Shown: positions 1 to 20,000 of the stretch, piece by piece
Numbering within the stretch: position 1 is the first letter of the stretch
How the letters are laid out: each line of letters begins with the position of its first letter
DNA from: Neophaeotheca triangularis
Lineage: Eukaryota
DNA: 20,000 nucleotides
Assembly: GCA_054600435.1 (NCBI GenBank)
Contig: BAAIJX010000031.1
Coordinates: 236,739-256,738 of the forward strand
Reading direction: 5' to 3'
Translations under genes and position numbers: made by a program
The notes under the pieces: generated by a model
Told to the model about the DNA's origin: nothing
The model's database searches: none
What the model saw: only the letters and a program-made list of their open reading frames with translations

Positions 1-901
1 TCTTGATACACCAGATCTTTGACGTTTTCGAGACTACCTGTACGCACCTTGACAAGTCGCATCGTGATCTCCTCGCTGTCGGCCAGAACATTGTTAAGGC
101 GGCGCGGGAGCCTCGCTTTTTAGCACCGGGAAGTCGTGCTGTTTGATCAGCGTGCGGACATCGCCAAAAAAGACAACGTCATGCTGGCCGATGAGCCTCC
201 GGTTGTTCTCGTAAGCGATAGTGTAGGAGCTGTTAGCGCGATTCCCAAGCGTTTTCGAACGCATTATTGAGACAGTTATTGCTCTCGTGAATTCGTTGGA
301 AAAGCCTAATAGTGTAGGCGGTGACAGTCGTAAAGGGAGAGGCATTGTTCTTGTATTTCACGAGTTTTCGTAACTCCATCATTTCAGACGTGTATACTCT
401 CCTTCTAACAGCAGCATCTCTTTCTAGCGCAGCTGACGCGTTGGGAACACTTTTCCTTAGATTCGGCCAAACTTCTCCGCTTCGGACGCATAAGTCAAGG
501 ATGGGAGGACGTTTCTGGAAGGGGAACACGATTAACAAAGAGACAATTTCTGAATTCGCTCTGGAATATGACGGCAGCCAAGTACAGCCCAAATGACTGC
601 TCAGCAGATCAGAACACTTACTTCCACGCGCTGAGCTGAGAACTTCATGGCGTCTGAACCGAAGTAACAAATCGATAGTCGCATCAAGCCACGTCAGCGC
701 GAGTTGCATTCGCGATGACTAGGTCGAATATACCCTCTTCACACATACACAAGTAACGCTGCCCGTCAAGGTAGAGGTTGAAAGGAATACATGTGTGTGC
801 ATAGATAAATAGCATTGGTGTCGAGAATCCTCATCCGAGTCATCTACACAAATCGAAAACACTATTCGTAGCCATCTCCAAGTACAATTCCGCACACTTG
901 A

Positions 902-3900
902 TCACATCAGATAATGCGCCTGAGCCAGTGGGACTTCAGACATTGCTGGCGCACAACATTCAAGACCGTCGGCGACGACTGTCTGCTCATATAGTCAGCA
1001 TGACTTCGCTTCCTGACGTCCAAGGGTTGGGCGACTTACAAAGGTTTCTGGATCGACCTTCATCTTCGGCGTGGCTCCGTTGAATTTCATGTCATGTTTG
1101 CCGACACTTCGCGTGTCCTTCACAGCTTCCACTCTTTTACCGAGGCCATAAGAACCTACGGTGCCACTCGCGATACCCGCCGCGGAGACAAACATCACGC
1201 TCGCATGCGGGACCAGGGGCTGTCGGTATGAGCAGTGTTCTTTTTTGTGTTTGCTTGATGGACTCACTGAAAACATTGGCCTCGATAAGATTGGCTGTAC
1301 CGTCGCGATTCTAAGCTTCAGGGTTAGATTGGGCATGACGAGAAGACAGCGGGCACCTTACGATGCGTTTGGATCGCCCTGATACATAGTTAGTCAATCA
1401 CGCTTTGTCAATCACGCTTTGTCATGCAAGCAGTTCCAATGGAACTCACCATCTGGGCAGAGGCAATGAAGCCGCTCTTTAGGACTTGGAAAGGCTTCGT
1501 GCCAAATCTGGAGGGTTCCCAAATGACCAAATCGGCTAACTTCCCGACTTCGACACTTCCTACCACGTGGCTAATGCCTTGTGTAATGGCGGGGTTGATG
1601 GTATACTTGCTGATGTACCTCTTCACTCTGTGGTTGTCAGCGCCAGTGCCTTTGTCTTCATCTAGAAAACCTCGATGAACTTTGTTCGCATGAGCCGTGT
1701 TCCAGGTACGCGATATGGTTTCGCCACATCTACCCATTGCCTGAGAATCGGACGACATCATACTAATGGCCCCGAGGTCGTGTAATACGTCCTCAGCAGC
1801 AATAGTCTCTGCGCGAATCCGAGACTCAGCAAAGGCTATATCCTCCGGTATGTCTTTTGACAAGTGGTGACAGGACATGGCCATATCTAGGTGTTCGTCG
1901 ACCGTGTCTGTAGTAAAGGGGCACGTTGGGTTGGTACTGCTAGGAAGAACATTCGGGTACTCCACTAGTCGAATCAAGTCCGGAGCATGGCCGCCTCCTG
2001 CACCTTCGATATGATATGCGTGAATGGTTCGCCCTTTGAAAGAAGCCGCGGTCTGTTCCACGTAACCAGCTTCATTCAGTGAGTCGCTGTGGAGCTCGCA
2101 CTGAATATCGTGCTCGTCACACAATCTAGGTGGTTGTTAGCAAGCTAGCTAAGAACTGAAGCACATTACTTACGATAGACAGTTGTCAATGGATGAAGGC
2201 GTGCAACCCCAGTCTTCGTGTACTTTGAGACCCGCCACACCTGCGTTCGCCTGATCTCGTAGTCCAGGGATCCCTGTGTCACTTCCTTTGCCTAGTATCC
2301 CATAGTTCAGCGGCAAACGATCGCAAGCTTGCATCATGCGGCCAATGTTTTCCTTTCCAGGAGTGCAGTTAGCTGCCACGGTGGCGGTACTACTTTACAT
2401 TAGCACAGCTTCTTTTCTAGCTTCGAGGCAATAGTTCACCTTGGACCAGTCCCGCCACTGAATTGTGTGGTAATACCCGCAGCTAAAGCTTCTTCAGCCT
2501 GCTGAGGGCAAATGAAGTGACAGTGAGTGTCAATTCCCCCAGCAGTCACTATCTTGCCTTCTCCTGCAATGACATCTGTACATGACCCGACTACCAAGCC
2601 AGGGTTCACTCCATCCATTGTGTCGATGTTTCCGGCTTTCCCGAGCCCAGCTATGTGTCCTTTCTTGATGCCAATATCGGCCTTGAAGATGCCGGTCCAA
2701 TTGATGATGAGAGCATTCGTTATGACTAGATCGAGACACTCGTCATCGGATCGACCACTCGCCTGGCCGATGCCGTCCCGCAACGTCTTGCCTCCTCCAA
2801 AAGTGCACTCGTCGCCGTAGCTTGTGAGGTCCTCTTCCACCTTTACCCATAGATCAGTCGAAGAAAGCCGAACAAAATCGCCAACTGTGGGACCGTACAT
2901 GGAAGCGTAAGCCTGACGATCCATTTTGCAGGCTTCGAGTCGCCCTTCCGTCTCGGTCGCGACTTCCGGCGTGTGACAAAACCTCTCCTCCTCCAAACGA
3001 CGAAGTATAGTGCTCGCCATGGACAAGTCAATTCTGCCAGGTGCAATGCTACTTCCTCCTCGAATAGTCTTGAGACCCCCAATCTCAACCAGTGATACAG
3101 TCTTAGTATCTCCTGGTTCGAAGCGTACCGAGGTTCCGGCCGGAACGTCGAGATGATAACCGTAAGACCTCAACCGATCAAAATCCAAGCAAGGATTCGT
3201 CTCAATAAAATGGAAATGCGATCCAATCTGCTATCCTTCAGCATGTAGCAACACTAGTGGGTTTATGGGAAACCCAACATACCTGCACGGCACGATCACC
3301 TTTGTTGGTGACCTGGAGTCTTCGCCTTGGTCTCCCCTTACGTAGCACGACATCGGGGCCCTTCGCAGTGACAAGAGCCCCTGGCATCTTCTCATGCTCG
3401 AATTCTGACTCGTCAACCGGTGGAAAAACGTCCATTTTGGGCGGATCAATACAACTGCCGTACATCGCCAACGTCAAGTCCCCACCGTCTGTGGAGATGG
3501 GCTTGTCGACAGTAACAAGATGAGTGCCTGTTCGGAACGTTCCTTCTACCTGTAGACCAGCAACCGTGGAGGTGACGGATGGCTCCACGTGTCTGCGTCC
3601 CAGGATCTTTTGCCCGATTGACATGAGATCTGAGACAGTGTGGTCGCCATCGCGTATGAGCTGAGCATTCATCAGTCTCATGACAGTCTTGATGGCTATT
3701 GGTTCTCATCGCCAGACATACCTCGTGAATGACGCAGAATATGAGGGCCTACTTTCGTCAGCTACCAGGTACAATTGATTTCATAGATGGCCAGTACGTA
3801 CTGTGGCTTCAGTGCCGTTCAGCTTGATCCCCCTAGCAAGACGTCGTTGGGCGAGATACCCAGCTTGTGCAACTAGGAGTTTGTCTAGCTGTAGTGAAAG

Positions 3901-3973
3901 CGTCAGAATCACGGACAACAAGGCGGTCTGTTGTCAGGAGGGCTCGACTCGCCTCTCTCGGCATGAGATGCAT
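902..3973 (-). CDS. ure1: Urease (single-chain fused gamma-beta-alpha, fungal type), 11 exons, ~837 aa, apparently intact
   Basis: Manually spliced exons (- strand): 3973-3953, 3888-3802, 3748-3722, 3660-3283, 3227-2440, 2389-2174, 2125-1450, 1378-1362, 1310-1268, 1219-1040, 982-902. They total 2514 nt with phases consistent. The protein starts [27 protein letters not shown] and contains [35 protein letters not shown] and the Ni-ligand/catalytic motifs [58 protein letters not shown]. It ends [10 protein letters not shown]. Confidence 0.97.
1393..1424. repeat. 14-bp tandem duplication (GTCAATCACGCTTT x2 + GTCA) inside urease intron 7
   Basis: Read directly from the sequence. Confidence 0.9.
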
Positions 3974-4230
3974 TGTTCCAAAACGCTCACAAAACTCTCT
4001 TTGAGGGATGAAGTTGCTGTAGTGGGCAACCGAGAGAATTTGATCGGAGAGTGCACGATAGAGTGTGGGATGGGTTCCAAGTGGAGATGATTTCGAACGA
4101 ACTTCGTTGCCGTATGCGCACTTATGTTGTCTCCCTTCCAGGTGCTCACAAGACTCCACTAGCCGGGAGCAGCGTCTTGGCATGCGGGGTCGATCTTGGC
4201 ATCTTGGCTATCATGCTTCCGTATGAGCCG

Positions 4231-4241
4231 GCGTGACGTCA
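4231..4241. promoter_or_regulatory. CRE-like palindrome (GCG-TGACGTCA) in the urease/MFS divergent promoter; candidate bZIP site
   Basis: Perfect TGACGTCA about 260 bp upstream of the urease ATG. A near-identical 11-mer (GCGTGACATCA) occurs twice in the ureD/ureG promoter. Confidence 0.45.
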
Positions 4242-4501
4242 AAGGCGCCGTGTCGGAAGACTCCACAGTTGTGTACGGAAAACCTTAGCGGGAGGGTCCA
4301 CGCCGGCCTGCAATGGATGTGGCTTGCACGGAAGACGTTCGTGACAGCCTCGTCGGCTGTAGTACCACCTACCTCTGCATAGCTATATTTGCCTACGTGC
4401 TGCTTTTTGCCTTTTTAGCTGATATCCCTTTCCACGTTGATGCGGTATCTATCCCTCGCTCTAGCCGAACTTGTGCTCCTGGTGTCCTCTTCCACGCTAC
4501 T

Positions 4502-6010
4502 ATGAGTTTAGAGTTTAGCCCATTCGGACAAAACGGAAACGGCTGTAAGCCAGACTCTACTGGCTTCAAAAAGCGATCGAAAGAGCAAAACTTTACTGCT
4601 AACCAGGCTGACACACTCAATGGAAACCGTGGCTCATCCCAGGACCGCCACGATGAGAATAATGTGACGGAACAGCTGCACTCCCATCCTCAAAAAGACC
4701 ATGGAGCGAACGCCTGTGAGCGTGTCGAGACCTTGAAACTGGATAGAGGAGTGTTGAAGAAGATTGAGAAAAGCCTCGTCCGCAAACTCGACCTGATCTT
4801 AATCCCTAACGCTTGCATCTCGATCATCACGAAAAAAATTGACACAAACGATTACAAGGACGAATGACGACATGGGCCTTGAAGGCACTAAAGCCCTCAA
4901 CTGGCTCAATATCTACTTCAACATCGCTTTTGCCATCTTTATCGTTCCCTCGGTCATTATCATACCTCGCGTGCGCCTCTCCCTCTGGCTGCCTGCCCTT
5001 AACTCACACGGGGCGTGCTGACCGGACGCATGGCGCTGGCTAACACTCTGAATCAAATGTACACCCTTCGTTGGTCCATCGGCCTGTGTGAAGCAAGTAT
5101 GCAATAGCGACAGGGACGACAGACTGTGTCCGTTTGCCAACATGTGTTAGGCGGAGGGGGCCGACCTGACGGTCGCAAGGGTGCAAGTAGCGGGCGCGGG
5201 TGGTATTGGGGTAGCCCGGTATGGTGTAGAAAGGTAGGCACGCGGACATGACGGTCACGATGCAGTTGACTATGTAGAGCCAGCGCTAGCCGGGCAGGCC
5301 ACTGTGGTTATCGAGGGTCTGGTGAATGGCGCTCTGCACAGCGAGAGTGAACACGCTAACGGCACACGAACCTCATAGATGTTTTGCTCGGTGCTTAGCC
5401 ATCTCGCAAGACGTGTATCAGCTGAGGAGGACGGGGACTCCAGGCCACCCGTTGTTCGTACAAGCGTGCAGAGTGCTGCTTGGTTTAGAGGTCGCACTAC
5501 TCTTCTTAGCTTACGCGCCCTGGGCGTGGGCTCAGAATATTAACGCTTACTTCAACATCTACCTCGACAGCCTACGGCGGTACTCCATAACAGAAGTGAC
5601 GAATATAGCCGTTGCCGCTTATATGATTAGCATCACTGGCTCGCTGGTCTTCGCCTCTTTATCAGACCGCTTACAGGCCCGCTGGCAGCTCGCTATCTTC
5701 GTCAACGTTATTTAGCTCGGGCGCACTTGCATACTCGCCGTTCGGCCCAGAAGCACGGCTTTGAAGATGTTCGCCTCCCCGCTCAGTTTCATTACAGGTA
5801 TCAACGAGCCTTCGCTGCTCAGCTAGATAGGGGACACGTGCAAGGATTTACCAATCGAGCGGCCCTTCATCATCGCTTCGACGCTGTCGCAACCGTTCGT
5901 CGGCAACGCCAGTATGCCGCACGCTTTGTGGTCTGCAAGTCAAGTTCCTAACTACAAAAGTGGACACAAATTCGATGTTAGTATTTGCATGGCGAGTCTG
6001 TGGCGAATTG
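4502..6010 (+). pseudogene. MFS transporter pseudogene (ACS/Dal5 superfamily, Fen2/Liz1-like) with stops, frameshifts and an internal inversion (~5100-5470)
   Basis: + strand: EKSLVRKLDLILIP, LNWLNIYFNIAFAIFIVPS, RVRLSLWLPAL, MYTLRWSIGLCEA, then YFNIYLDSL...SDRLQARWQ and ASQVPNYKSG. The intervening MFS motifs WPG..LLS*YT.CEMAK and QSAIHQTLDNHSGLPG*RWLYIVN..PGYPNTTRARYL are on the - strand. Start and end coordinates are approximate. Confidence 0.85.
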
Positions 6011-6303
6011 TGTCGCGAGTTGCGCGGCGAGTTGCGTGGGAACACCGATTTATCGGGGTCTAATTGCTAAGTAGCGGGAGTGAGCGTATGCTTTCGTCTT
6101 GCTTTGCCAGTTCGAAGTAAACATAGAGAGCGAGTGACCAGCAATTTCGTATTTAATCTCTAGCACTACCCTCGCGCGAAAGTCTCCGGAAAACGCCGTG
6201 TTTGATGCTCCCACGAACCCTCTCCCTTCCGTCCTCATTCAACCTTTGAGCACCTGGGGAGCTAATTATCCCCAACCCTCCGCTACTATCTTCTAACGCT
6301 GAA

Positions 6304-7290
6304 TCAGCGATCTTGTAGACAGAGCAAGTATTGCTTGCCGAATTCCTTTTCCACAGTGCCGTCACTAGTCAAGAGATCTCTCAACCAATGTCGGGCATGT
6401 TCCACTGAGGTCGCTCCGAATCTGACGACAACGAAGTTGCGAACTGAAGTCGCCGTCCATGTAGGCTGATCTTTAGTTGGTTGGGGAAAGGTCGCACGTC
6501 CTTCGTTTTGGCATCCGATTGCGTCCGAATTTTGGGACCAATCTCTATCACCGGCACGCGGCTGACAAGCGTAATGTTGAAGAAAATGGTTTCCTAGGTT
6601 TTCAAATAAAGGCCCTCGGATGATGACTGTGCCAAAGACCCCTAGTTGCTCCATACGTTCCCGCAACGACTGCGTGAGTAAAGGAGACTTGGCGAAGAGC
6701 ATCGTGTTGTCTCTCAGTAGCAATCTTCCTCCTTTCTGCTCCTCTCCGTTCGTTTTCGTAGGCAAGGACCATACTTCGTTCCGTGCTCTCCACTCTGTGA
6801 GATCCCATCTCTCATTGCGTGCGCTCCTTCCCTCTGATACCCAGTCCAACAAGAGCAGACTAGAGCTGAGAGGATCAATCTCAAAAATTTGCTCTTGTCT
6901 GTATACACTCCCCCTGAAGGGCTGTACAGGATCCTGGAGAACCACTAAAGACGCGTTATCCCTGATGGTAACCTTTAAGGACTGCGTAGTGCACCTGACG
7001 TTTGGTAGGCTCCTGTAGATCTTTGTGCTTCCTTGTGTCAGGAGGCCTAAGCGAGCGTTGGAGAGTATTTCGGCATGGACTTCGATCTCGTCTCCGGCAA
7101 CAAGTCCACCTCCGTGGTTAAGGACAAAGACAAGTACTGCGCTTGCACCGGGCGGCGAGGATGGCGATATCAACCTCACAGGGTACGTGCAAGCAAGGGC
7201 CTCGACTTTGGAAGATCGCAGTCCAAATGGCCTTGCGCAAATATAGCCGCGACCACCGGTCTGGCCTGACTGTACGGACGCTGGACGCAT
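6304..7290 (-). CDS. ureD: Urease accessory protein UreD (fungal Ure4), single-exon ORF of 328 aa
   Basis: Motifs YPVRLISP, NHGGGLVAGD, LLTQGSTKIY, DPVQPF, LLDWVSEGRSARNERW, LLLRDN, VFGTVIIRGP, VVVRFGATSVE and FGKQYLLCL. The exact start codon is uncertain. Confidence 0.92.
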   Translation of the reverse strand: MRPASVQSGQTGGRGYICARPFGLRSSKVEALACTYPVRLISPSSPPGASAVLVFVLNHGGGLVAGDEIEVHAEILSNARLGLLTQGSTKIYRSLPNVRCTTQSLKVTIRDNASLVVLQDPVQPFRGSVYRQEQIFEIDPLSSSLLLLDWVSEGRSARNERWDLTEWRARNEVWSLPTKTNGEEQKGGRLLLRDNTMLFAKSPLLTQSLRERMEQLGVFGTVIIRGPLFENLGNHFLQHYACQPRAGDRDWSQNSDAIGCQNEGRATFPQPTKDQPTWTATSVRNFVVVRFGATSVEHARHWLRDLLTSDGTVEKEFGKQYLLCLQDR

Positions 7291-7371
7291 CGAGAAGAGT
7301 TTGCTCAGTAAAGGGGTTGATGGAAAATCTACAGACTTTCATCCTTGTTTCCTACAAAGCGTTAGTACCGA

Positions 7372-7540
7372 GATAATAAGTAACTTCTTTCACTGCGCTG
7401 ACTGCCCAGACCGTCGATGTCATGTTGGAGCGTATCAGCACTACGGTCAACTCTCTAATGCCCGATCAGCTCCGAGTTGAATTGGGATCCGAGCGTGACA
7501 TCATGATTGATCACTGGGTCCACGGGTGTCGGACGATAAG
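7372..7540. promoter_or_regulatory. Candidate GATA (AreA/NIT2-type nitrogen regulation) sites: AGATAA at 7372 and CGATAAG at 7534
   Basis: HGATAR matches between two nitrogen-metabolism genes. The motif is short and could occur by chance. Confidence 0.3.
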
Positions 7541-7613
7541 CTCCGAGTCAGCTGTGGACTCGAGCGTGACATCATGAAATGATCAGATCACTTTGGTTCC
7601 CGGGTGACGGCCG
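7468..7613. repeat. Imperfect direct repeat (period 71 bp, two copies) in the ureD/ureG bidirectional promoter
   Basis: Copies start AGCTCCGAGT at 7468 and 7539. An identical 17-mer CGAGCGTGACATCATGA lies at 7490-7506 and 7561-7577. Both copies end ...CGGGTG(T/A)CGG(A/C)CG. Confidence 0.9.
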
Positions 7614-7726
7614 CTGCCCAGATATACATCGAACCCATCCCCGCGCAGTATCATGAGTCTCTCCCCGTTCTCGCCCAAACGCATGTAACGTGCGCATTGT
7701 CTCTCGGATTCGGTTCTACATTCTAA

Positions 7727-8557
7727 ATGACCATGGCATCTCAATCTCTCTATCTTGCGAACGAAAGCCACTCCCATGCTGGAGAGGGTCACGGACACAC
7801 ACACGAGCTTCTGTCCGGACCTGGCTCGTTTACACTACGCGAGAAGCCGGTTGTCGAGGGTCGAGACTTTCACGAACGAGCATTCACTGTTGGCATTGGG
7901 GGGTTGGTCTCCCGCACATTCCCTACATGAGATCTCCTACGGACTTATAATGACATGTAGATTCATAGTCCTGTTGGGTCCGGCAAAACGGCCCTGATGC
8001 TCGAGCTTTGCATCGCGTTACGACAGAGTCACAGCATAGCCGCCGTAACTAACGACATCTTTACGCGCGAAGATTGCGAATTTCTCACCCAACATCATGC
8101 TCTACCTAGCGAACGTATTCGCGCGATCGAAACTGGTGGATGCCCGCATGCCGCTGTGCGAGAAGACATATCTGCGAATCTCGCGGCTCTGACCGACCTC
8201 CACCGAGACTTCGACACCCAGATTCTGTTGATAGAATCCGGGGGCGACAACCTTGCGGCTAACTATTCACGAGAGCTCGCGGACTACATTGTTTACGTTA
8301 TAGATGTGAGCGGCGGGGACAAGATTCCGAGGAAAGGTGGACCTGGGATCACTCAAAGCGATCTCTTAGTGGTGAACAAGACTGACCTGGCAGATATTGT
8401 GGGTGCTGATTTAGATGTGATGGAAAGAGATGCGCGAAAGATTAGGGATGGCGGACCGACTATCTTCGCGCAGGTGAAACACGGGAAAGGCGTCAACGAC
8501 ATAGTGGACTTGATACTGAGCGCATGGAGAAGTTGCGACGGCAAGAGTATAGAATAG
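7727..8557 (+). CDS. ureG: Urease accessory GTPase UreG (fungal Ure7), 2 exons (7727-7902, 7969-8557), ~254 aa
   Basis: Short His-containing N-terminus [14 protein letters not shown]-loop GIGG/PVGSGKT across a GT-AG intron (7903-7968), then [46 protein letters not shown] and NKTD. Confidence 0.97.
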
Positions 8558-9009
8558 CAAACAAGAACAGGTAACATGACTTGCGGTAACGAATCAAGCT
8601 TTGATGTAAAGCAGTCTTTCTTATCACATATCTTTACGTGAATCCACAGAGCTTTGAACATCCAAGCAACGCCGTTTACGACCACATTGATCAACATTTG
8701 GGGGGAGGGGGGTGGTGTGTGAGTTGGATTAACGAGTCGCATGAAATATTCATCGCTGTACTTGTAATGTGGGGCTATCTATATCTCTATTTACATTCGA
8801 GCATGGAGTCGATGAGACCATCCACCAGCTGCCCACTCAACGACGCATGTGTTCAAGCGAAGCCATAACAACGCTTTCAAGAATCTTTAACACTCCTTTC
8901 CTGATTCCTTCGAATCTTGACAGCCTTATCCTTGGCCCCACCGCGCACCCTCTCGCCATCGAGACTCCAATGAAAGGCAAAACCCTCATCCTTATGTCCG
9001 GGCAGATTA

Positions 9010-9367
9010 CCATCCCCCGGTCGCAAGTATTCATATCATGCGAACACCCCACAGCTAACACCCACCCGGTATGCCCCTCTAAAGTATGCATCGGGTACCG
9101 GTCCTAGCTCCTCGCAGTCTTATCCCCACTCATCATCTCGCCATGCTCGCACACACTCGCTGAACACCTCGTCACCGCCGTGACCTTGAAAACCGCCTCC
9201 GCCCTGTAGGAGATACCTAGCTCCAACTCAGCCGTTGTCTTGCCATCTACGTACGCTTTCACCACGACATTCTGGCTGGTTTCTCCGGTGTCGCCGAAAC
9301 GGTTGTAAAACCTGTACGTGACGCGATCAGAGGGCTCTTCGTCGCCTAAGAGACTGTTGAGAAGGAG
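9010..9367 (-). pseudogene. RSA4: Fragment of RSA4/Notchless-like ribosome assembly factor (NLE domain end plus first WD40 repeats), degraded
   Basis: Translation LLLNSLLGDEEPSDRVTYRF...GKTTAELELGISYRAEAVFKVTAVTRCSASVCEHGE..SGDKTARS*, then PMHTLEGHTGWVLAV and ILATGG. This resembles Rsa4 motifs as I recall them (AVFKVKPVTR..GHG; GDNTARIWD..TPMHTLKGH..WVL; IATGSMD). Confidence 0.72.
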
Positions 9368-9375
9368 CGGGGGAT

Positions 9376-9800
9376 ATTATCGGCGTACGGTCAAAGTCAG
9401 ACTGCAAATATCTATGTGGCCAACTCATGACGCGTTATTACGGCGAGCGCAACTTGATCGGACTCTCCCGCGATCCCGGTGGGATCATGACGGACCTTGC
9501 GAGGCACATATATCAGGCAGACTACGAGATGCTAAAGATCGATAAGTTGCACAAATACATCAGATCCGTTGACCAAAGCGCCGCAACTTCCGTCTGGGCC
9601 GCCGTGTCGCCGCACTTCTAGGGCGAAGGAAGGGGTGGGCATTCATCTGGGAGATTGTAGGGAGTATGGGTCTGCAAGAGGATACCAGCGGTCCTCCTGT
9701 GGCGTATGCAAATCATGCTTATGATAAGGAGATGGAGAGATTGTGGAAGAGGGGTCGCGACGCTACGGGTGTTTCTGCTGGGGACCGAGAGGCGCGGTAG
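9376..9800 (+). pseudogene. C-terminal fragment of a short-chain dehydrogenase/reductase (retinol-DH/WWOX-like)
   Basis: AYGQSQTANIYVAN (YxxxK altered to YxxxQ), frameshift, then LSRDPGGIMTDLARH, RSVDQSAATSVWAAVSPHF* and HAYDKEMERLW. The N-terminal Rossmann motif is absent. Confidence 0.8.
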
Positions 9801-10289
9801 GAGTTGAGCGGAGGCTCCCATCTGTTGGCAGGTCCATTTTCGCATATATAACCGATCAGTACAATGGATGGTTCCTTGTTTCAATTACCAGCAACACAAT
9901 AAGGTAACAGATCGTTTGAAATGCGACGATACGTGAAGATTTCTGAGCTTGTATACCTTTGGCCTGCTGTGATCAAAGTATATATGGTGCACACGAGTCG
10001 GGGCTTCTTAAACACTTACAGGTTTACAGCTCTTGATACGCATATTTGCGGAGAGCATGTGTAACTCGTACGAGCGTCCATGTCCACCAACGTACACAGT
10101 TGACGCTAATCAAACAATACATGACCATGAATGCGTCTCAACGTTAGCCCTTCGTGGCTATCGTACCACCTGTGGTAGGTAGCGCAGAGTATGCGGTCGG
10201 GATGTAGACCACCGGTGAGTGGTGTGGCTGGGGCGACGATTCATCTTGAGCGCCAGAGCCGACAGATAACCACATAGAATATCGCCTCC

Positions 10290-10660
10290 TTGCAGTATCT
10301 AGAAGGCGATGTCAATACCTGGCTCTCCCTCAAGCCCGCCCCACCTACTGCGAACCATCATCATACGACGAGAGAGACTGTGGCCGCCGCCGCAGCTGCC
10401 ATCACCTCCAAAAATCTCAACGGCCCGAAACTTCTCAACAATTACGAGGCTGAGCGGCAGAAGCGCCTCCGTCCCAAAGCAGGAGCCCAATACATCGATC
10501 CCCGTGAGGACGAGAAGCTCAGCAAGTATCTAGACGACCCGTGGCTTGCGCCAGGAACGCCGGTGCAGCAAGCCGTTCTCGATGGCGGATCTCGCAAGCT
10601 CTTGATAGTGGGTGCTGGGTTCAGGGGGATTTTGTTCGCTGTCAAGCTTATTATGCAGGG
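10290..10660 (+). pseudogene. 5' fragment of a Baeyer-Villiger (FAD-dependent) monooxygenase
   Basis: YEAERQKRLRP..GAQYID..LDDPW..KLLIVGAGFRGILFAVKLI matches a BVMO N-terminus with its first GxGxxG. The similarity stops right after this motif. Confidence 0.75.
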
Positions 10661-10778
10661 GTGCACAGGGGGTTGGATGTCACGGTGGCGAACTAGTAAT
10701 TTTGGGTCGCATTGAGGCTTTTGTGAGCATGGCATGGCGCTGGAAGTGGAAAGCTCTCCAGGCCATCCCATCTTGGAC

Positions 10779-12443
10779 TCAAGTCGATCTGAGTTGCCGT
10801 CGAACTTCTTCCGGCGCATCGACATCGTAGTTTTGGAACTTCCGACTTCGGATCCTTCGCTCAAACATGATGTCTAACTCCTCAAATGTACGATCCTTCG
10901 TCTCCGGCAAGAAGAACCAACAATACAATGTACAGAGCATACTCAAGCCAGCAAAAAGAAATCCTAGCTTGCCACCCCAATTCCCCTCATCCTCCTGCAT
11001 AGCATAAGGTATCGACACGGAAAAGACAATGGAAGATATCTGCACCGTTACTGTGGCAATCGAAACACTAAGACCGCGCAAATGCACAGCCGAGACTTCT
11101 GCAAGAAGCACGTAGCAGAACGGTCCTACAGTAGTGTCGTAGACGATATTGCACAGCATCATAAGCACGCACTGCGCCCACGTTGCCGCCGTGTTGTTTG
11201 AATTTTCCTTGACAGTGTCCAGTACGCCTATCAAGAAGAGCAGCATCATCAGGCTTGTGCAGCCCATCAAGTACGCCGTACGTCGTCCAATGCGCGTCAT
11301 TAGGAACCAGGATAGAACTGTCCCTATGAAGCCGAGGGCTTTGAGACCGAGGTTCAGGGAAAAAGAGTTTGAACCGTCCAAACCGGCGGTCTCGAAGAAG
11401 TAGACGGCGTAGCTGATGAAGAGCAGATTTCCAGTGAAGGCTTGCATGTCGTAGGCCATGATGCAGATTACGAGGCGACGGAAATTGGTGCCTCGGAAGC
11501 AGTCTTTGAAACGAGGTGGGCCTTGGGCGTATGATGTTTCCAGTGCGAGCGTTTCTTTAACATGAGCGAGCTTGATGTCTACGTCGATGTTGCTGGTAGT
11601 CAGCCGGGTTAGGGAGTGTCGCGCGGCTTCGGGTTTACCTCGTCGGCAGAGCCAGTAAGGTGGGTCCGGGCAGAAGTAGATGATGGCTAGCAAGATTGCT
11701 GGGAGGATCCATTGTGTGGCTAGCGGGATTTTGTAGGCGAGGTTGTTATTATATTTGTTGGTGCCCTTGAGGATGCCGGCTGCGATGAATTGTCCGATGA
11801 CGAAGGCAAGGTTAGTCATGGACGCTGCGAATCCGCGTAAGGCTAGGGGGCAGACTTCTCCTACGAAAGTTGAGGCGACGATCGGGTAGAAAGCGATTAT
11901 GATGCCGTTGATCAGCTCGCCGGTGAAGAGTTGGGTGGGCGTGTTAGCGAAGAACTGAATGAAGATGACTCCCATAGAGAGTGCTGAGCAGACGGCTATC
12001 ACTTTTCTAGGCCCGAACCTGTCGTATGCTGCTCCTGCTAGGAGGGATCCTACGACTGCGCCAATGTTGTTGGCATAGTTGAATGCGCCGAGCCATTGCG
12101 CTGGAATGAGGTATTCGCCGCGATATTTGTAGCCGAATGTCTCTTTGAAAGGCTGGAGGCCGACTAGACTGCCCACAACATTGCCGTCGACGCCTATCGA
12201 TTGATTATTTAGTGTCAATTGAGTAACAATCACTCTACGAGACGGTTATCTACCTTTTAGAACGACTGCAAGATTGATAAACAGGGTCCATGCCACGGCA
12301 GGCCAGTACAGACGAACGGCATGCCAAAATGACAGGCCATGCTCGTACGCCGTGAACTGTCTCGATCTGTCTGCTTCGGTACTCACAAAGTCTGGCGACT
12401 CTGCCCGGGATTGGGTGGTGTTGTGGACCTTATTGCCCTCCAT
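10779..12443 (-). CDS. Sugar porter family MFS, maltose/alpha-glucoside permease-like; 2 exons (12443-12254, 12193-10779), ~534 aa, intact
   Basis: EHGLSFWHAVRLYWPAVAW, DRFGPRK, GEVCPLALRG, YKIPLATQW, DCFRGTNFRR, IGRRT, AEVSAVHLRG, WGGKLGF and LPETKDRTFEELDIMFE. One GT-AG intron at 12253-12194. Confidence 0.93.
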
Positions 12444-12685
12444 GACTGACTTTACAACTGCAGAGCTTGAAGAACTCAGTTGAGCGACAAAGTGGAAGAA
12501 ATTGATATGACTCTCTCCATATGTCACGTCGCATGCCAAGCTTCGTGCGGAGAAACCTGGCTTCACCGAAATATGGCCAGAGCTGGCTCCCGTGTCTGAA
12601 TACTGCCGTGTCTGTCAATGTAGCCTTCATATTGTATGTTGTTAGTGGTACATGCCTTTGTGGGGTGTTGTTGCTGCTCCTGTGC

Positions 12686-13358
12686 ATGCCGCCATACACT
12701 CCGCGCCACGTTGACTGAACGCGCCAGACTGCTCCTTAAGCTCCACACCGGTGATGCCGCTGTGGTTGGTCATGCTCTCGGTAAGAGCAAGCGTATGTTC
12801 GAGCGGTGGATCTTTCGCTCCAACCTCTTTGGTGAGTCGTATGCCTCTAAGTCGGTGACCATGGGAAGCCCTAAAGAGTTGACTGCGCACCAGGAGCAGA
12901 TCAGTAGCTGTTGGAGAATGGGACTGAATTGAACTGAGCGCGCTCTCAGTGGTTAATTGACTACCTCCATGATCGGCCTACGGCATACCTTGATGAGCTC
13001 GCTCTCGCCGCGTATGACGCATCCGACGTGCACGTGTCTCATACTACCCTTCACCGCACAATGGAGCGCCGCCGGTGTTCGAACAAGGTCGCCAAGAGGG
13101 TTACGAAGGAGAGGCACCGCGGGCTCCGGTCGTTGTGGTGTACAACGGCCTCAAAGTGGTCGCAAGAGCTGTTATGCTTTGTCGATGAATCTGCGGCAAA
13201 TGAGAAGACTGGATATTGTAAGAGAGGTTGGTCACCGCGAAGGGTTGACTGCGTCGATCTGGAGTTAACTAGGAGGTCTGAGGGGCGTGGTCAGTACTGC
13301 CGGCGTTGACTGTTAATAGGTACCTTGCCGGCACGAAGGTTGTACAAGGTGCCATTGT
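12686..13358 (+). mobile_element. Tc1/IS630-mariner (DDE) transposase remnant, 3'-truncated
   Basis: HTH-like N-terminus (...GSPKELTAHQEQ), LIDYLHDRPTAYLDEL, VSHTTLHRTM, first catalytic Asp in CFVDES, RGWSP, and WSVLPALTV..YL..VVQG. It is frameshifted and I could not identify TIRs. Confidence 0.8.
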
Positions 13359-13845
13359 AGTCTCTACGGTCTGCTGGGGATACTGGTCGCAGTATGCTTT
13401 CACAAGCTTCAGTGTTTCCCCATAGCCTTGCTGTTCCTTTTAGGCGCTCTCTCGTAGAAGACCACTAGTTGCACGATCCAGATCATGGCCGAGAGGCTGC
13501 TGTTGAAGTTGCCGGGTTCCCAGCTCTGCGTCGACATGATACTAAGCATAGCACAAAAGCTGAGTAAAGGCGACTGGTACCACGAGCGCCAGTGGTGTGG
13601 CAGATGAGAAGCATCCATAGGTCTAGAAGTCTTTATTTCAGTTGGTGCTCTTCGTCTTCGTCTTTACTGTCGGGATCATCGTCTTCGGTTTAGTCCGTAC
13701 ATATTTGTCGTGCTGCATCGCAGATTCTCTTGCCACACTGCTAGCTGATCGTTTGTGACCTCGAGGATATCCTCCGGTCTCTAGTCTTCGCTGTCGTCGT
13801 CCACATCTGCGACTAGGCTGAAGTGGTACTCATTGAGGGCTACAA
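13353..13845 (-). pseudogene. Fragment of a second, distant family of TLH-like gene (N-terminal/middle region)
   Basis: Across frameshifts: LLDLWMLLICHTTGAR-WYQSPLLSFCAMLSI..QSWEPGNFNSSLSAMIWIVQLVVFYE..TLKLVKAYCDQYPQQTVET. It parallels the YKSGLISGLVVMGL..GWIPAINYTPILLAIV region of the distal TLH (17640-17777). Family assignment is from memory. Confidence 0.6.
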
Positions 13846-14144: not shown

Positions 14145-14738
14145 ACTAGCTAATCATATGTAGGTACAAGATTTCTGCCAGCACCGTCAGGGGAAGGTGG
14201 TGGTGGGCAGGTATGAGTCCCCTATCCAGGACATCTCCTTTGCAGGCATCCCTTAAGGCTCCCCACTGTCCCCCATTCTCTATGTCTTCTACAATGCAGA
14301 TCTGGTAGACATGGACATTGACAAGCAGGGAGGGGCCATTGGCTTTGTGGATGACTTCAATGCATGGATCACAGGACCAAGCCCTAGTGACAACACACAC
14401 TGGCCATCCAATTCAGGATCGTACCCAGAGTGGAAGCCTGGGCCAAGGAAAGTGGTGCCATCTTTGGAACAGACAAGACAGGCCTCATCCACTTCACACC
14501 AGTGGCCAGGTCCAGGCAGGCAGCAGTAGAGGCACCTCCTCTGAACTTCCAAGGACAGGAGATCCACCCCCAGGAGACAGTCGAGGTCTTGGGGTCACAT
14601 TCGACACCCGGCTCAAAATGCACACCCACATCTCCAAGGTCACCACTAAGGGACTAGCAAAATGCATTGCCCTCCAGTCAGTCAAGGGCATCGGGCCCAG
14701 GCAGATGCGCCAGCTCTACAGGGCATGCGTGGTTCCTT
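14145..14738 (+). mobile_element. Non-LTR (LINE, Tad1-like) retrotransposon reverse transcriptase fragment
   Basis: GIP*GSPLSPILYVFYNADL, GFVDDF, WAKESGAIF..DKTGLIHF, LGVTFDTRL..HI and MRQLYRACVVP. Contains stops and frameshifts. Confidence 0.9.
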
Positions 14739-15136
14739 GTCTCATGGCGCTTTTATGGAAGACCAACAGTTGAATAACCCTAACTACAATGCCACGACAA
14801 GATTGCCGCAATCTGAATAAATTTTGGTGAGGATTTGGGGGCCAAAAGCTGACAGGGGGGGCAATCTTTTTAAAGAAAGGGACTCAATCCTTTTTAGCAA
14901 TTCTTGACCAATACTTCCAAAATTTTGACAGTTATAATGCAAGCCAAATTGGCTAGTGGAGCCAAAATTTTGGAGCATTTGAGCAACTTGTAAGGTTGTA
15001 ATTTAGTGTAGCCCAAAAAGTGAAGTTCTTCATGCCAAGAAACCTCTAGCCAATTAGGGTTGGAGGGCATAAAGCCAGCTTGCCAAGCCAACTAGCTAGC
15101 TAGTAAGCCACATAGCCAGCTAGCTAACTACACATC

Positions 15137-15232
15137 TAGCAGCCATCAAGCTAGCAGTTATCAAGGTAGAAGCCATCGCCATTAGTAGTCAGCTATTAAG
15201 ACAATAGCTATCAAGCCAGCAGCTATGAAAGC
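15137..15232 (+). repeat. Degenerate ~15-bp tandem array (GCCATCAAGCCAGCA-like), copy A
   Basis: Read directly; homologous to the array at 16178-16352. Confidence 0.8.
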
Positions 15233-15241
15233 CTGTATTCC

Positions 15242-15416
15242 TAATAGAAAGGTGGTGAATGGAGAAGCAGTCAATAGATAGTAAATAATACAAAGGTAGT
15301 GAATGAAGAAGTAGTCAATAGACAGTAACTAATAGGAAAGCAGTGAATAGAGAAGTAGTCAATAGACAGTAACTAATAGAAATGCAGTGAATAGAGAAGT
15401 AGTCAATAGACAGTAA
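15242..15416 (+). repeat. ~44-bp minisatellite, 4 copies (TAATAGAAATGCAGTGAATAGAGAAGTAGTCAATAGACAGTAAC-like)
   Basis: Four tandem units read directly, without spacers. Confidence 0.9.
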
Positions 15417-15510
15417 GGTAGGAGCAAACAGGCTGCTACATATCTTCCTCTCTCTTCCTTTCCTATCTTTCTCTTCTCTCTCTCCTTATATCATCCACTC
15501 TACTAGCTAC

Positions 15511-15600
15511 CTAACCAGCCAACTAACCAGCTAACAAACCAACTAACCAAATAACCAACTGAACAACTAACCAAACAACCAACTGAACAACCAACCAACC
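15511..15600 (+). repeat. Degenerate (AACC/AACT/AACA)n microsatellite, preceded by a CT-rich tract (~15443-15487)
   Basis: Read directly; lies just upstream of the ATG at 15608. Confidence 0.85.
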
Positions 15601-15607
15601 TTCTACT

Positions 15608-16160
15608 ATGTCTTTACCAAACCCCTTTGAAAAGATGAGGCAAGATGCCCTAGCTAGATATAGTCAGGTAAGTAAGCTCTTTCTTTAGTAAGCTTGTTCA
15701 CCCTAACATAATAACAGCAAGGCATCAACATGGTTGAGAGGCTACAAAATGCTATGTAGAGACTCCACCAAATCAGCTCTCTCCCACCCTATGGAGCTCT
15801 CACACCTATCCTAGCTGAAAAGCAAGGGACTGTTTTTAGGGTAGAAGATGTGTGGGAGTAGCTAGGCAAGCTAGGTAGAGAGGGAAATGCAGACTTTGAG
15901 AGAGCACTTCTAGGGAGACTGAATGTGGGCTCAGCTGATATGTTGATTCAAGAAAGAGGGTAAGAGGAAGCAATAGCAAATTAGAGATGGAGGGATAAGT
16001 CTGAGCAATTTAGGAGGGAGATGTACTTGGCTGTTAGGGATATCTTGTATGATCTAGATCACATGCTACTAGCTAGAGAGGCATTGATTAGTAGATAGTA
16101 AGGGGAGAGAGTAGAGGGAGAGGAGAGAGTACTGAATTTCAACTACCTCCCTTCTCAAGC
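15608..16160 (+). pseudogene. Small spliced gene of unknown function upstream of TLH, inactivated by point stops
   Basis: ATG at 15608; exon MSLPNPFEKMRQDALARYSQ; canonical intron 15668-15717 (GTAAGT..CTAAC..CAG). The second exon stays protein-like in one frame with scattered TAG/TAA. The 3' end is uncertain. Confidence 0.55.
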
Positions 16161-16177
16161 TAGGGTTAGGGTGTATC

Positions 16178-16352
16178 CAGCCATCAAGACAGCAGCCATC
16201 AAGCTACCAGCCATTGAGGCAGAAGCCATCACTATCAGCAGTTAGCCATTAAGTAGTTAGCCATTAAGCTAGCAGCTATCAAGCCAGTAGCCATCAAGCC
16301 AGCAGCTATCAAGACAGCAGCGATCAAGCCAGAAGCCATCAAGACAGCAGCC
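16178..16352 (+). repeat. ~15-bp tandem array (GCCATCAAGCCAGCA-like), copy B, running into the TLH start codon
   Basis: Read directly. It is preceded by TAGGGTTAGGGT at 16161-16172. Confidence 0.85.
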
Positions 16353-19300
16353 ATGGAGATGTTCATCTATAGACTAGAGAATCAAGTCATCATTTGCAAG
16401 CAGTGTAAATTTGCACTAGTGCCATCACAGGTGGAGAGCCATTTGAAGAACTATCACCTATTTATGACACTACAGACAAGGAAAGCAATTCAAGAAGCAG
16501 TGCATAGAATGGGTAGGGTTGCCTAGCAGGAATCCCAAGTATAGTACCCTAGCCTAGGAAGCTAGCCTATCCCAGGATTGCCCATTTTTAATGATGGATT
16601 CAGGTGTAAGGCATGCCAGTACATTTGTAGAGACATAAGTGGCATATAGAGACATTGCAAGAGCCAGCATAGATGGACCAACCCAAGGAAGAGAGGCAGG
16701 CCAAGCCAGGGTACATAGGGGTAGAGGGGAGCAAGCCAGAGTAATAATAAGATGTGGGAGGAAGGGCAGCATTGCCAGAGGTTTTTTGAGTATGCCCAGT
16801 AGAAGAAGTATTTCCAGGTGGCAGGACAAGCAGAGCAGGTAGGGCAGGCAGGGCAGGCAGGGCAGGCAGGGCAGGCAGGACAGACCTAGAGAGGAGGGAA
16901 AGAAAGAGCAGAGGACAATACTAGGAAGATGGAGAGGATAGCAGAGGAGATAAAAGAGCATGTAGCAGAATAGGGCAGGAATAGGGAGATCCAGGGCAGT
17001 ACAAGTAGGATGGAAGCTAACCCATGGATGGAATTTATAGGGTGGGAGGAGCATTTAAGGAAGTTCAAGAGGGAAGAGATGTTAGCTACAATGCAGCCTA
17101 GCAAAGCAGAGGTGGCAGATGTAGAGCAAGCAATGAGAAATAGGGAAGGGGGAGGGGAAGAGATAGATATAGGAGAGGAAGAGGGAGAGGAGAGAGGATT
17201 AGTAGAGGCATGTAGGGCAACCAGGAGGTTGATCAGGAAGGCTATAGCCACATGCCAGCTACATATTGTTAGGAGGTCAGCATTGGAGTTTGTGAACAGG
17301 AGAGAAGTAGGTGAGGCAGGGAATAAAAGGTCATTTTATGCTAAGCATAAGGCAAACACCATGAAGAAGTATATTGCAATTTAGGTGAAGATAATGAGGT
17401 ACATTTGGAGGACAGGTCAGGTAGGAGAGAAGAGAAGGCTAGGGTACACATTGACAGAGGAGTAGGAAGACATGTTAGAGCAGTTGAAGAGTAAGTCCAG
17501 GTAGTGGGAAAGGGTAGAAGATAGCATTCCAAGGGGAAGGAGGAAGGAGAAGAGGGAGATGTTTAGAGAAGAGATGGAGCATGTGTGTTTAGAATTTTGG
17601 ATTGCAATGTTTGACCACAGGTTAAAGGAAGGTGAGTATAAGAGTGGGTTGATTAGTGGGTTGGTAGTAATGGGTTTGAACCCAGAGAAGCCAGGGTGGA
17701 TTCCAGCCATAAATTATACCCCTATTTTGTTAGCCATTGTCACAGTGGCCAGAGGGTTAGTTGTGTATAAAGCATAGGGAGACAGGAAGCAGGAGGTGGA
17801 GGGTAGGATGAGAGATAGGATGTAGGAGAGGGAGGCTAAGAGGGAGTCAGTGTTAGTTTTTAAGGGGGTAAAAGAGATGGTCCACAGGTTCATGACATTG
17901 ATAAGATTTGATGGAGTTCCCAGCCCAATGGACAGGATTTTGTATATAAGGACATATAGGATGAAGATCAGATTTATGACAAAGGGAGATGCCAGGGTAA
18001 CATAGAAAGGGGAGGAGATTTGCATTAACAGGATCAGTTTTACTATGGATGATGTAAGGGAGGTTGTCCATAGGTTAAATGAGTCAGTGAGGCAGAGATT
18101 GATGGATGATTTGTTGTTTGTGAAGAGGGAGGGTAAGCCAGGGTGGTCAGGGTGGGTAGGGATGCCTAGTTTACCTAAGTTAGATTTAGGGAAGTTATAT
18201 AACAACCTAGCGGAGATGGCAGAGGATTGGAGTTTTTTGAAGGATCCTAGGAACAAGTAGGAAGTAGATAGGGAGAAGTAGTTATTTAAAAGGATTTCTA
18301 GGGATGAGGGGATAGAGAAGAAGTTTATGAAGGGAAATTTGGATGAGGTGGAGAGGTGGGACCAGATTAAGTGGAATGAGATAGGGGTAGAGAATTACAT
18401 AAGGAGGGTAAGGGGATTCAAGGAGGAGTTATTAGCATTAGTGCATTTGACAGCAGGGGCCCCAGCTAGAGGGACAGAAGTGTTGAGCATCCAGCACACA
18501 AATGGGGAAGATAGTAGGGCATAGAGGGGGGTTTTTGTAGACAATAGGATGGTGGCATTTGTGACATCATACCACAAGGGGTACAGCACTAGCCAGAAGG
18601 TAAAGATCATCTATAGGTTTGTGCCTAAGGAGGTGGGGGAGTTAGTAGTGTATTATTTGTGGTTAGTGGAGCTATTTGTGAGGCAGTTGCAGTTAGCAGT
18701 AAGGGGGCAAAGTGAGTTTAGCCCATTTTTATGGGAGCTAGAGCCAGAGGAAGAATTCAGGGAAGAATGGGATGGGGAGATGGAAGAGGAGGATGAAGTG
18801 GCAGAGGAGAATGAGAGGGAGATGGAAAGGGTGGGGAGAGAGGGGATAGTAGAGAGGGACATAGAGAGTGAGGGGGAGAGGGAGCAGCAGGCCAAGAATG
18901 TAGATGGATTTTGGGACATAGACAGGGTAAGGAGGGTGTTGCAGAGACAGACAGTTAGTAGGATGGGGGTGAAGATCAGCACAGCCATTTGGAGGCAGGT
19001 GTACCCAGCCATTCAGAGGGAGTAGACAAAGGAGAAGGAGGTAGGGGAGATGTTAGATGAGATTTATGAGGGGAGAGGGAAAGAGAATAAGGATTAGAGT
19101 GCAAGGCAAGCAGGGCACAGCAGAAGAATGGAGGAGATGATTTATGGGGTATTGATGTTAGAGTCCCCATTTTACACTATGTTAGAGAAGGCCAGGTTTA
19201 GGAAGGTAAGTTTGGATTGGCACAGGTTTTTGCATTTCCAGTCAGCATAGACAGATAAGAATGTGGATATGGAGATAAGGAGGAGGATGGATGAAGAGCA

Positions 19301-19886
19301 GGAGAGGCAGGAGTTTGAGAGGTGGAAGGTAGCCAGGCACACAGACATCAGGAAGAAGTTAAAGGGGATTATAGGGAAAGAGGCAGAGTTTAGGGGGTTG
19401 CAGAAGCCAGGGTTAGAGGCCATTATGGAGAGGAAGGCCAGGGTTTTGATTGTGATGAGAACAGGTGGTAGGAAGAGTTTGTTTTTCATGGTGCCAGCAG
19501 CCAGTTCAAGAGATGGGGTCAGCATTGTGGTAGTGCCATTGAATTCATTAAGGCAGGACATAAGAGAGAGGTACAGCAAGGCAGGCATCACATGTGCAGA
19601 GTAGGATAGGATGAGCCTAGCATTTTGGGCTAGCATTGTGTTAGTCACCCCAGAATCAGCAGTGACCAATGCATTCAGCAGGTTCATTAACCAGAAGAAA
19701 ATGATGAGGCAGTTGGACAGGATTGTGATTGATGAATGCCATGTGGTGTTAGATTCCACAGACAGGTAGAGGCCCAAGGTGAGGGAGTTGATTGAAATAG
19801 GGGACAAAGGGACACAGGTGGTATATTTGACAGCCACATTGCCACCCAAGGATGAAGCAGCATTTTTCAAGGCAATGGGGGTAGTG
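16353..19886 (+). pseudogene. Telomere-linked RecQ-like helicase (TLH) gene, RIP-like mutated and truncated by the telomere
   Basis: One reading frame throughout: the ATG at 16353 and the ORF-track pieces at 17010, 17559, 18045, 18327, 18549 and 19263 are all in the same frame, with many TAG stops. N-terminal Zn-finger/DUF3505-like motifs: IICKQCKFALVPSQVESHL..YH, CKACQYIC..RHCKSQH, CQRFF. RecQ motifs: FRGLQ, TGGRKS, VVVPLNSL, VTPE, IVIDECH, LTATLPP. Motifs IV-VI are missing. Confidence 0.92.
16842..16879 (+). repeat. 9-bp tandem repeat (GGGCAGGCA) x4 within the TLH frame
   Basis: Read directly; encodes GRQ repeats. Confidence 0.9.
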
Positions 19887-20000
19887 AGGGTTAGGGTTAG
19901 GGTTAGGGTTAGGGTTAGGGTTAGGGTTAGGGTTAGGGTTAGGGTTAGGGTTAGGGTTAGGGTTAGGGTTAGGGTTAGGGTTAGGGTTAGGGTTAAGGGT
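19887..20000 (+). repeat. Telomere (TTAGGG)n
   Basis: AGGG, then 17 perfect TTAGGG units (19891-19992), then terminal TTAAGGGT. The G-rich strand runs toward the window end. Confidence 0.99.

Follow-up and report, generated by a model that had tools for sequence, protein, structure and literature searches.

The salt-tolerant fungus Neophaeotheca triangularis, a Dothideomycete by taxonomy lookup, carries two ureases, and the one encoded in the final 20,000 nucleotides of contig BAAIJX010000031.1 (C31) is placed by our trees in a second, paralogous urease clade beside the canonical set, not as the canonical fungal orthologue. The window, as we call this whole 20-kb stretch, closes a contig of 256,738 bases in an assembly of 25.4 Mb. 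This enzyme, Ure2, lies in a cluster with genes for the maturation proteins UreD, UreF and UreG and for a nickel permease. In fungi, urease is usually regarded as a single housekeeping enzyme whose helper genes are scattered. We think it probable that N. triangularis has a self-sufficient second urease pathway around an old paralog, with its own chaperone, in which urea would be hydrolysed with altered kinetics and under separate control.

Two urease gene sets in one genome

Six-frame searches of the assembly, made exon by exon, return two matches each for urease, UreD, UreG, UreF and the NicO/Nic1 nickel permease. One set, five genes leading from nickel import to catalysis, lies inside 18 kb, with an arrestin-like open reading frame (ORF) and repeat remnants interspersed; the genes for UreF2 and Nic1 stand in the stretch to the left of the window that ends at the window start (locus L009). 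The other set is spread over contigs C43, C34, C53 and C8, with two C8 sites 309 kb apart. Given that these other five copies are on four different contigs, chance is not a credible explanation of the clustering.

The Ure2 gene has 11 exons and 10 introns of 48-71 nt, without internal stop, and all introns splice in frame; the model is identical to database protein P0001, labelled Neophaeotheca triangularis. Its first intron is GC-AG, and its seventh, the longest at 71 nt, contains a small tandem duplication of about 17 nt (window 1397-1424). Pfam scores above cut-off mark the gamma, beta and alpha domains of Ure2 (PF00547, PF00699, PF00449, PF01979) and the open frames of UreD2 (PF01774), UreF2 (PF01730), UreG2 (PF02492) and the NicO permease. 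An earlier, sequence-only reading of the window had described an intact urease, UreD and UreG with a major facilitator superfamily (MFS) remnant within 7.7 kb, in two divergent pairs about 11 kb from the telomere, and had suggested that it may be a self-contained accessory second module, which separate housekeeping copies elsewhere would support. Gene models, frames and Pfam bear this out: telomere repeats start at 19887, 11.3 kb from ureG, both pairs stand head-to-head over spacers of 646 and 436 bp, and housekeeping copies exist for all five genes. With UreF2 and Nic1 the cluster is larger, and the module more complete, than had been proposed. The description of the genes as operon-like fits only loosely; they have opposite strands, separate promoters and introns and are not polycistronic.

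Cluster and dispersed proteins are 63% (urease), 40% (UreD), 50% (UreF), 88% (UreG exon 2) and 78% (Nic1) identical, and their fourfold sites differ at 0.67-0.83, near saturation in all five pairs. In a 121-row tree holding the best 120 of 7,943 matches, Ure2 forms a clade of 29 rows including the window's own protein; support is 100/100 in an IQ-TREE run on 39 rows drawn from the 121 after thinning of near-duplicates and partial rows. Rows were ranked by likeness to the cluster urease, so that canonical ureases of close relatives are under-sampled. The dispersed urease groups with Dothideomycete canonical ureases and the window copy does not. Approximately unbiased (AU) tests reject a single clade of the window urease and its dispersed copy (p 5e-51), and likewise of the two UreD proteins (p 0.001). 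When rooted with eight bacterial alpha subunits (65 rows), the tree, which carries a long-branch warning, places Ure2 outside the canonical mould ureases, with one further row left in no firm order relative to it. Nine of the ten Ure2 introns are common to metagenome locus L022, which is Cladosporium-like (86% over matched segments), and two to the dispersed copy, whose gene has 2 introns as against 10. By these comparisons Ure2 is not a recent duplicate of the dispersed urease. Our literature search found no description of a second fungal urease clade or of a fungal urease cluster, which supplementary cluster catalogues could hold.

Short RNA contigs at least 99% alike, from three environmental runs of three studies, lie over urease (exon 7, 1529-1820), ureD (its 3' part and beyond, 6055-6645) and ureG; window parts without RNA cover count as no evidence. 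One ureG contig is spliced across the intron, and is therefore RNA. A 151-nt contig of run X3 joins urease exon 4 (3303-3337) to the arrestin-like region (L009 ~8620-8650), about 4.6 kb apart, at a junction without splice signals, either as a chimera or as a deletion allele. Both divergent spacers contain GCGTGACRTCA, presumably CRE-like and similar to a stress-linked basic leucine zipper (bZIP) site. They hold 3 of its 12 genomic copies, two in one repeat; this motif was chosen after inspection and serves as a lead only. Both copies of the 44-nt repeat in the ureD/ureG spacer contain GCGTGACATCA. Counts of GATA and PacC-like motifs do not distinguish the cluster promoters from the dispersed ones.

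Active-site surroundings, linkage and spread of Ure2

All 16 listed active-site residues are present in Ure2; the list is an assumed one, mapped through an alignment with PDB 3LA4, which we take to be jack bean urease. The ligands H406, H408, carbamylatable K489, H518, H544 and D632 and the flap residues C591 and H592 are invariant in the Ure2 clade (clade 2), and in the clade-2 rows covering them the nickel ligands and catalytic residues are kept, with a single Ala-to-Gly change as exception. The nickel ligand set of urease is described in PMC6077230. What has changed is the neighbourhood. In 92 canonical rows, 295 non-ligand columns are fixed at 95% or more; clade 2 has switched 15 of them. 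Eight of these 15 lie no more than 3 residues, counted along the sequence, from an active-site residue, versus 38 of the 280 columns that are kept (Fisher p 5e-4). Canonical subclades taken as a control show 0, 0 and 2 such switches, an imperfect control given that their stems are shorter than that of clade 2.

The canonical motifs ATT, HTDTLNE, HTYHTEG and MLMVCHH are absent from Ure2, which has AAN, HSDSLNE, HAYHIEG and MAMSCHH instead. All 36 clade-2 rows read AANCT, AANGT or GANCT, and the eight commonest forms among the 77 matched canonical rows (of 91) read ATTCT. HAYHIEG and MSCHH each occur in 32/32 matched clade-2 rows versus 0/88 canonical ones, and neither exact motif is found in 71 mostly bacterial loci; AAN, too, is missing from the forms listed for these loci and for the canonical rows. 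A literature search on a urease second-shell residue found nothing. Judged from the alignment, the replaced second-shell motifs mark Ure2 as a variant but cost it no ligand. We regard these remodelled surroundings as the most surprising feature of Ure2, and they point to changed catalytic properties.

The clade is spread patchily over four fungal classes: Dothideomycetes (Hortaea, Vermiconidia, Cladosporium, Coniosporium uncinatum), Eurotiomycetes (many Penicillium and Aspergillus, one Lithohypha/Exophiala entry), Sordariomycetes (Cordycipitaceae only, versus 40 canonical Sordariomycete rows) and Lecanoromycetes (Flavoplaca and Calogaya lichen assemblies). In seven named species Ure2 adjoins a UreD or UreF gene, as read from consecutive accessions or locus tags. 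Hortaea werneckii has the order UreF-urease-UreD (UreF GAB1737055, urease GAB1737056-58, UreD GAB1737059; also KAI6827607/8 and KAI6853467/8); the others are Cordyceps fumosorosea (OAA49692/3), Penicillium concentricum (N7517_007574/5), P. brevicompactum (KAK9847364/5, KAJ5334422/3), Aspergillus ambiguus (KAL4889571/2), A. varians (KAL4781734/5) and A. unguis (KAL4801771/2). In five more (P. palitans, A. aurantiobrunneus, A. glaucus, A. ruber, A. chevalieri) the sign of co-location is weaker, Ure2 and helper agreeing only in the length of their contig. No helper surfaced for a linkage comparison in Akanthomyces, C. javanica, Vermiconidia, Coniosporium, Cladosporium and others, and no helper gene was seen at 8 clade-2 metagenome loci among the 80 loci returned (five loci shorter than 3.6 kb).

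UreD trees of 122 and 42 rows contain a branch with 100/99 support that leaves every linked UreD, Calogaya's excepted, on the same side as the window copy, and UreD relationships largely follow those of the urease tree. UreF2 was found, among the top 120 UreF matches, only in this genome, in Hortaea and in a few further rows. By these adjacencies, what is conserved as a core outside this genome is the urease-UreD pair and not the arrangement of four genes. At L020 (3142-5540), the nearest metagenome relative of the window urease, the downstream genes, presumably a different MFS gene and an aminotransferase-like one, differ from those of the window, and the arrestin-like gene is missing; flanks therefore turn over quickly.

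Within the clade the tree conflicts with taxonomy. Cordycipitaceae Ure2 stands beside Neophaeotheca/Hortaea (100/97), and excluding it is rejected (p 0.013); Hortaea and Vermiconidia belong to the same order, yet sisterhood of their Ure2 is rejected (p 0.001), as is a single clade of all Dothideomycete rows. The linked copies of Neophaeotheca, Hortaea and Cordyceps group together, with the unlinked Cladosporium-like copy apart. This conflict suggests transfers of Ure2 between lineages. The Lithohypha/Exophiala rock black yeast Ure2 is 89-90% identical to Calogaya and Flavoplaca entries, from another class (P0504, P0506, P0028); this identity, together with the position of the Calogaya UreD taken up below, possibly reflects transfer between lichen fungi and black yeasts, or mixed assemblies. 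A search for a Starship captain (DUF3435) gave zero PF11917 matches in the genome, and control genomes matched nothing either. OrsD/helicase remnants flank the cluster on both sides, one at window 16359 and the other some 18 kb before the window begins. Almost no sequence words of the cluster occur in DNA runs X6 and X7, which are filed under the same organism code, and X6 contigs contain nothing matching window 1-13500, both comparisons being without a positive control.

The patchy distribution that the sequence-only reading named as support is found, largely congruent, in both the urease and the UreD clades, whose members are linked in other fungi, and its view that this is not a recent bacterial insertion agrees with a single-chain, intron-rich enzyme and with the clade's placement against bacterial outgroups. 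The idea of a mobile or horizontally shared cluster has the tree conflict in its favour, which suggests transfer. As for the same four-gene arrangement elsewhere, the urease-UreD linkage recurs and the layout as a whole does not, and one Ure2 lineage is unclustered.

Proposed pathway and competing explanations

How might such a pathway have arisen? A duplication predating the split of the main mould classes would have given Ure2, which would have diverged jointly with its own UreD2; the pair would have been kept patchily and at times probably moved between lineages. The Neophaeotheca/Hortaea branch would have added UreF2, and UreG2 and the nickel permease would have joined here. On established urease biochemistry, Nic1 should import Ni2+, the GTPase UreG2 should hand it via UreF2 and UreD2 to apo-Ure2, and Ure2 should convert urea to ammonia and carbamate; the helper roles and their order in urease maturation are given in PMC6077230. 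UreD is the first helper to bind the enzyme, and urease plus UreD may form the conserved core because a diverged urease would most need its matching UreD. The switched residues near the metal site and in the flap would most likely alter kinetics or pH/salt tolerance, and separate promoters would allow regulation apart from the housekeeping set.

Several observations weigh against this account. In Calogaya, the UreD encoded two tags away from Ure2 differs from the UreD2 type and groups with Chaetothyriales, and the top 120 UreF matches include no UreF2 from Eurotiales or Cordycipitaceae. At the Cladosporium-like locus L022, among what we take to be housekeeping-type genes, Ure2 has no helper over 8.4 kb on its upstream or 8.8 kb on its downstream side, and loci L026 and L020 have none in the covered 3.7 and 3.4 kb. 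For the AU tests inside the clade, the groups were chosen post hoc from the tree and the model was the single-matrix LG+G4, and ancient duplication with repeated loss (hidden paralogy) could be part of the source of the tree conflict. Finally, there are signs of decay: a dead permease, repeat remnants, and an out-of-frame ureG splice, the one spliced contig (depth 3) using the acceptor at 7960 in place of the in-frame AG at 7968, which yields a frameshifted product of 70 aa. A single contig of that depth cannot tell noise from decay, nor show the main splice form of ureG.

In a bolder version, which we regard as possible and hold only tentatively, Ure2 would represent a second, so far undescribed class of fungal enzymes with the urease fold. 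Such an enzyme, with a chaperone of its own and with second shell and flap rebuilt, would serve a non-urea substrate, or conditions of high salt, low water activity or unusual pH in which the canonical enzyme fails. Urease and UreD would travel as one module among fungi that are salt-tolerant or xerophilic or come from rock, lichens, food or insects, and the module would become self-sufficient on gaining UreF, UreG and a nickel importer.

A less likely reading makes Ure2 a neofunctionalised nickel amidohydrolase acting mainly on a substituted urea, a ureide or a carbamate, formerly imported by the neighbouring SEO1-like permease. Fixed switches are indeed found in the flap as well as next to the urea-binding Ala and to the His residues of the metal site, and the excess of switches near the active site over the control subclades fits such a change, with the reservations that those subclades have shorter stems, that the residue list is an assumed one, mapped through the jack bean alignment, and that proximity is along the sequence. 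In the same vein, the permease shares the urease promoter region, and among its full-length relatives the best is a Rhizoctonia cluster, one of whose members bears the label SEO1, which we take to denote the allantoate-permease (ureide-transporter) family. The direct ligands and catalytic residues are all unchanged, however, and the permease is broken and, in the 2 of its 26 matched relatives that were looked up, shows no link to urease.

It is improbable that we are looking at a real, old cluster now decaying here, a subtelomeric relic losing its helpers. Such decay would account for the permease pseudogene with its inversion, the repeat remnants between nic1, ureF and urease, the use of the 7960 acceptor, the weak branch site in the ureG intron, and the lower G+C content at third codon positions (GC3) of four cluster genes (0.49-0.56 versus 0.65-0.71 in the dispersed copies). 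Yet the frames of urease, UreD, UreF, UreG and Nic1 are intact, with ten urease introns in frame, relatives at 66-87% identity retain full-length proteins, the depth-3 contig cannot show the main ureG splice form, and the dispersed UreG could substitute for UreG2. Cluster Nic1, with a GC3 of 0.67, hints at a host recruit.

That identity of 88% for UreG and 78% for Nic1, perhaps host-derived recruits both, is all that speaks for a recent origin, by local duplication of housekeeping genes or by bacterial insertion, or for a contaminant contig, readings which we consider highly improbable given near-saturated synonymous sites in all five pairs, AU tests refuting duplication for urease and UreD, a single-chain enzyme with 10 introns shared as described above, and a cluster that sits on a 257-kb contig ending in a telomere. 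The self-sufficient second urease pathway is the account we prefer.

Coordinates, flanking sequence and known systems

Positions of the cluster genes and their surroundings (window coordinates unless C31 or L009 is given)
Feature	Position	Strand	Remarks
NicO/Nic1 nickel permease, 432 aa, intact	C31 227568-228866 (L009 830-2128)	minus	7.9 kb left of window
UreF2, intact	C31 232537-233424 (L009 5799-6686)	minus	3.3 kb left of window
Arrestin-like ORF	L009 8510-9643	plus	between UreF2 and urease; cluster membership only putative
Ure2 urease, single-chain gamma-beta-alpha, 837 aa	3973-902	minus	gene model, Pfam, RNA contigs
Ure2 exons 1-6	3973-3953, 3888-3802, 3748-3722, 3660-3283, 3227-2440, 2389-2174	minus	
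Ure2 exons 7-11	2125-1450, 1378-1362, 1310-1268, 1219-1040, 982-902	minus	
Divergent spacer urease/MFS, 646 bp	3974-4619		one GCGTGACRTCA site at 4231-4241
MFS permease pseudogene	4620-6000	plus	stops, frameshift near 4865, inverted segment 5127-5474
UreD2, single exon, 328 aa, intact	7290-6304	minus	frame, Pfam, RNA contigs
Divergent spacer ureD/ureG, 436 bp	7291-7726		44-nt direct repeat at 7463-7506 and 7534-7577
UreG2, 254 aa with in-frame acceptor	exons 7727-7902, 7969-8557	plus	
CpG-depleted, stop-riddled repeat remnants	14146-19886	plus	OrsD/DUF3505 16359-16670; DEAD helicase 19251-19601
Telomere repeats (TTAGGG)n	19887-20000	plus	contig end; 11.3 kb from ureG

The inversion in the permease pseudogene concerns an internal segment of about 350 bp, whose opposite strand encodes the match to P0403 residues 161-274. 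Between ureG and the telomere a sugar-porter MFS gene (PF00083) occupies 10779-12460 on the minus strand; a short ORF (10278-10715, plus) that meets it tail to tail has no Pfam match and resembles, we presume, the start of a flavin monooxygenase. Remnants at 12938-13400 and 14146-14780, again without Pfam match, presumably derive from a DDE transposase and a non-LTR (long terminal repeat) reverse transcriptase. From 15 to 20 kb the window is nearly CpG-free (CG/GC 0.00-0.03), a pattern of CpG-directed and not CpA-directed mutation, and over the cluster classical indices of repeat-induced point mutation are not raised. The telomere repeats start within the helicase reading frame (window 19251-20000), as if a telomere had been added at a break in the element. 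An OrsD/helicase element in better condition lies to the left of the cluster, at C31 215100-219000 (L011/L010), and inside the cluster there is a short OrsD/helicase remnant (L009 4090-5300); the remnant adjoining nic1 we take to be LTR-retroelement-like.

Ure2 occurs in common Penicillium and Aspergillus (entries include P. camemberti, P. roqueforti and P. rubens), black yeasts, lichen assemblies and Cordycipitaceae, and ammonia release by the fungi that carry it may have an unrecognised source. The clade offers a natural experiment on the role of invariant second-shell and flap residues and on the specificity of UreD for its enzyme. The layouts encountered (Ure2 alone, with UreD, with UreD and UreF, and the full five-gene set) resemble stages of metabolic cluster assembly.

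Like the canonical fungal and plant enzyme, represented by PDB 3LA4, Ure2 is a single gamma-beta-alpha chain, aligned over 1-836, with the same ligands, and it is served by the same helper set without UreE (Pfam; roles in PMC6077230). Unlike that system, it represents a second paralog clade, its genes are clustered, 15 near-invariant positions are switched and its gene has 10 introns in place of 2. Bacterial urease operons, such as ureDABCEFG of Klebsiella aerogenes, likewise bring enzyme and maturases together, sometimes with a nickel permease, whereas the cluster described here has head-to-head pairs, introns and fused subunits, and lacks UreE. The nitrate, GAL and DAL clusters are horizontally shared fungal catabolic clusters. 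The Ure2 cluster is, like them, accessory, patchy and subtelomeric, with a gene tree that conflicts with taxonomy; unlike them, it has no identified carrier element, it duplicates an existing host pathway, and its core is an enzyme together with its chaperone.

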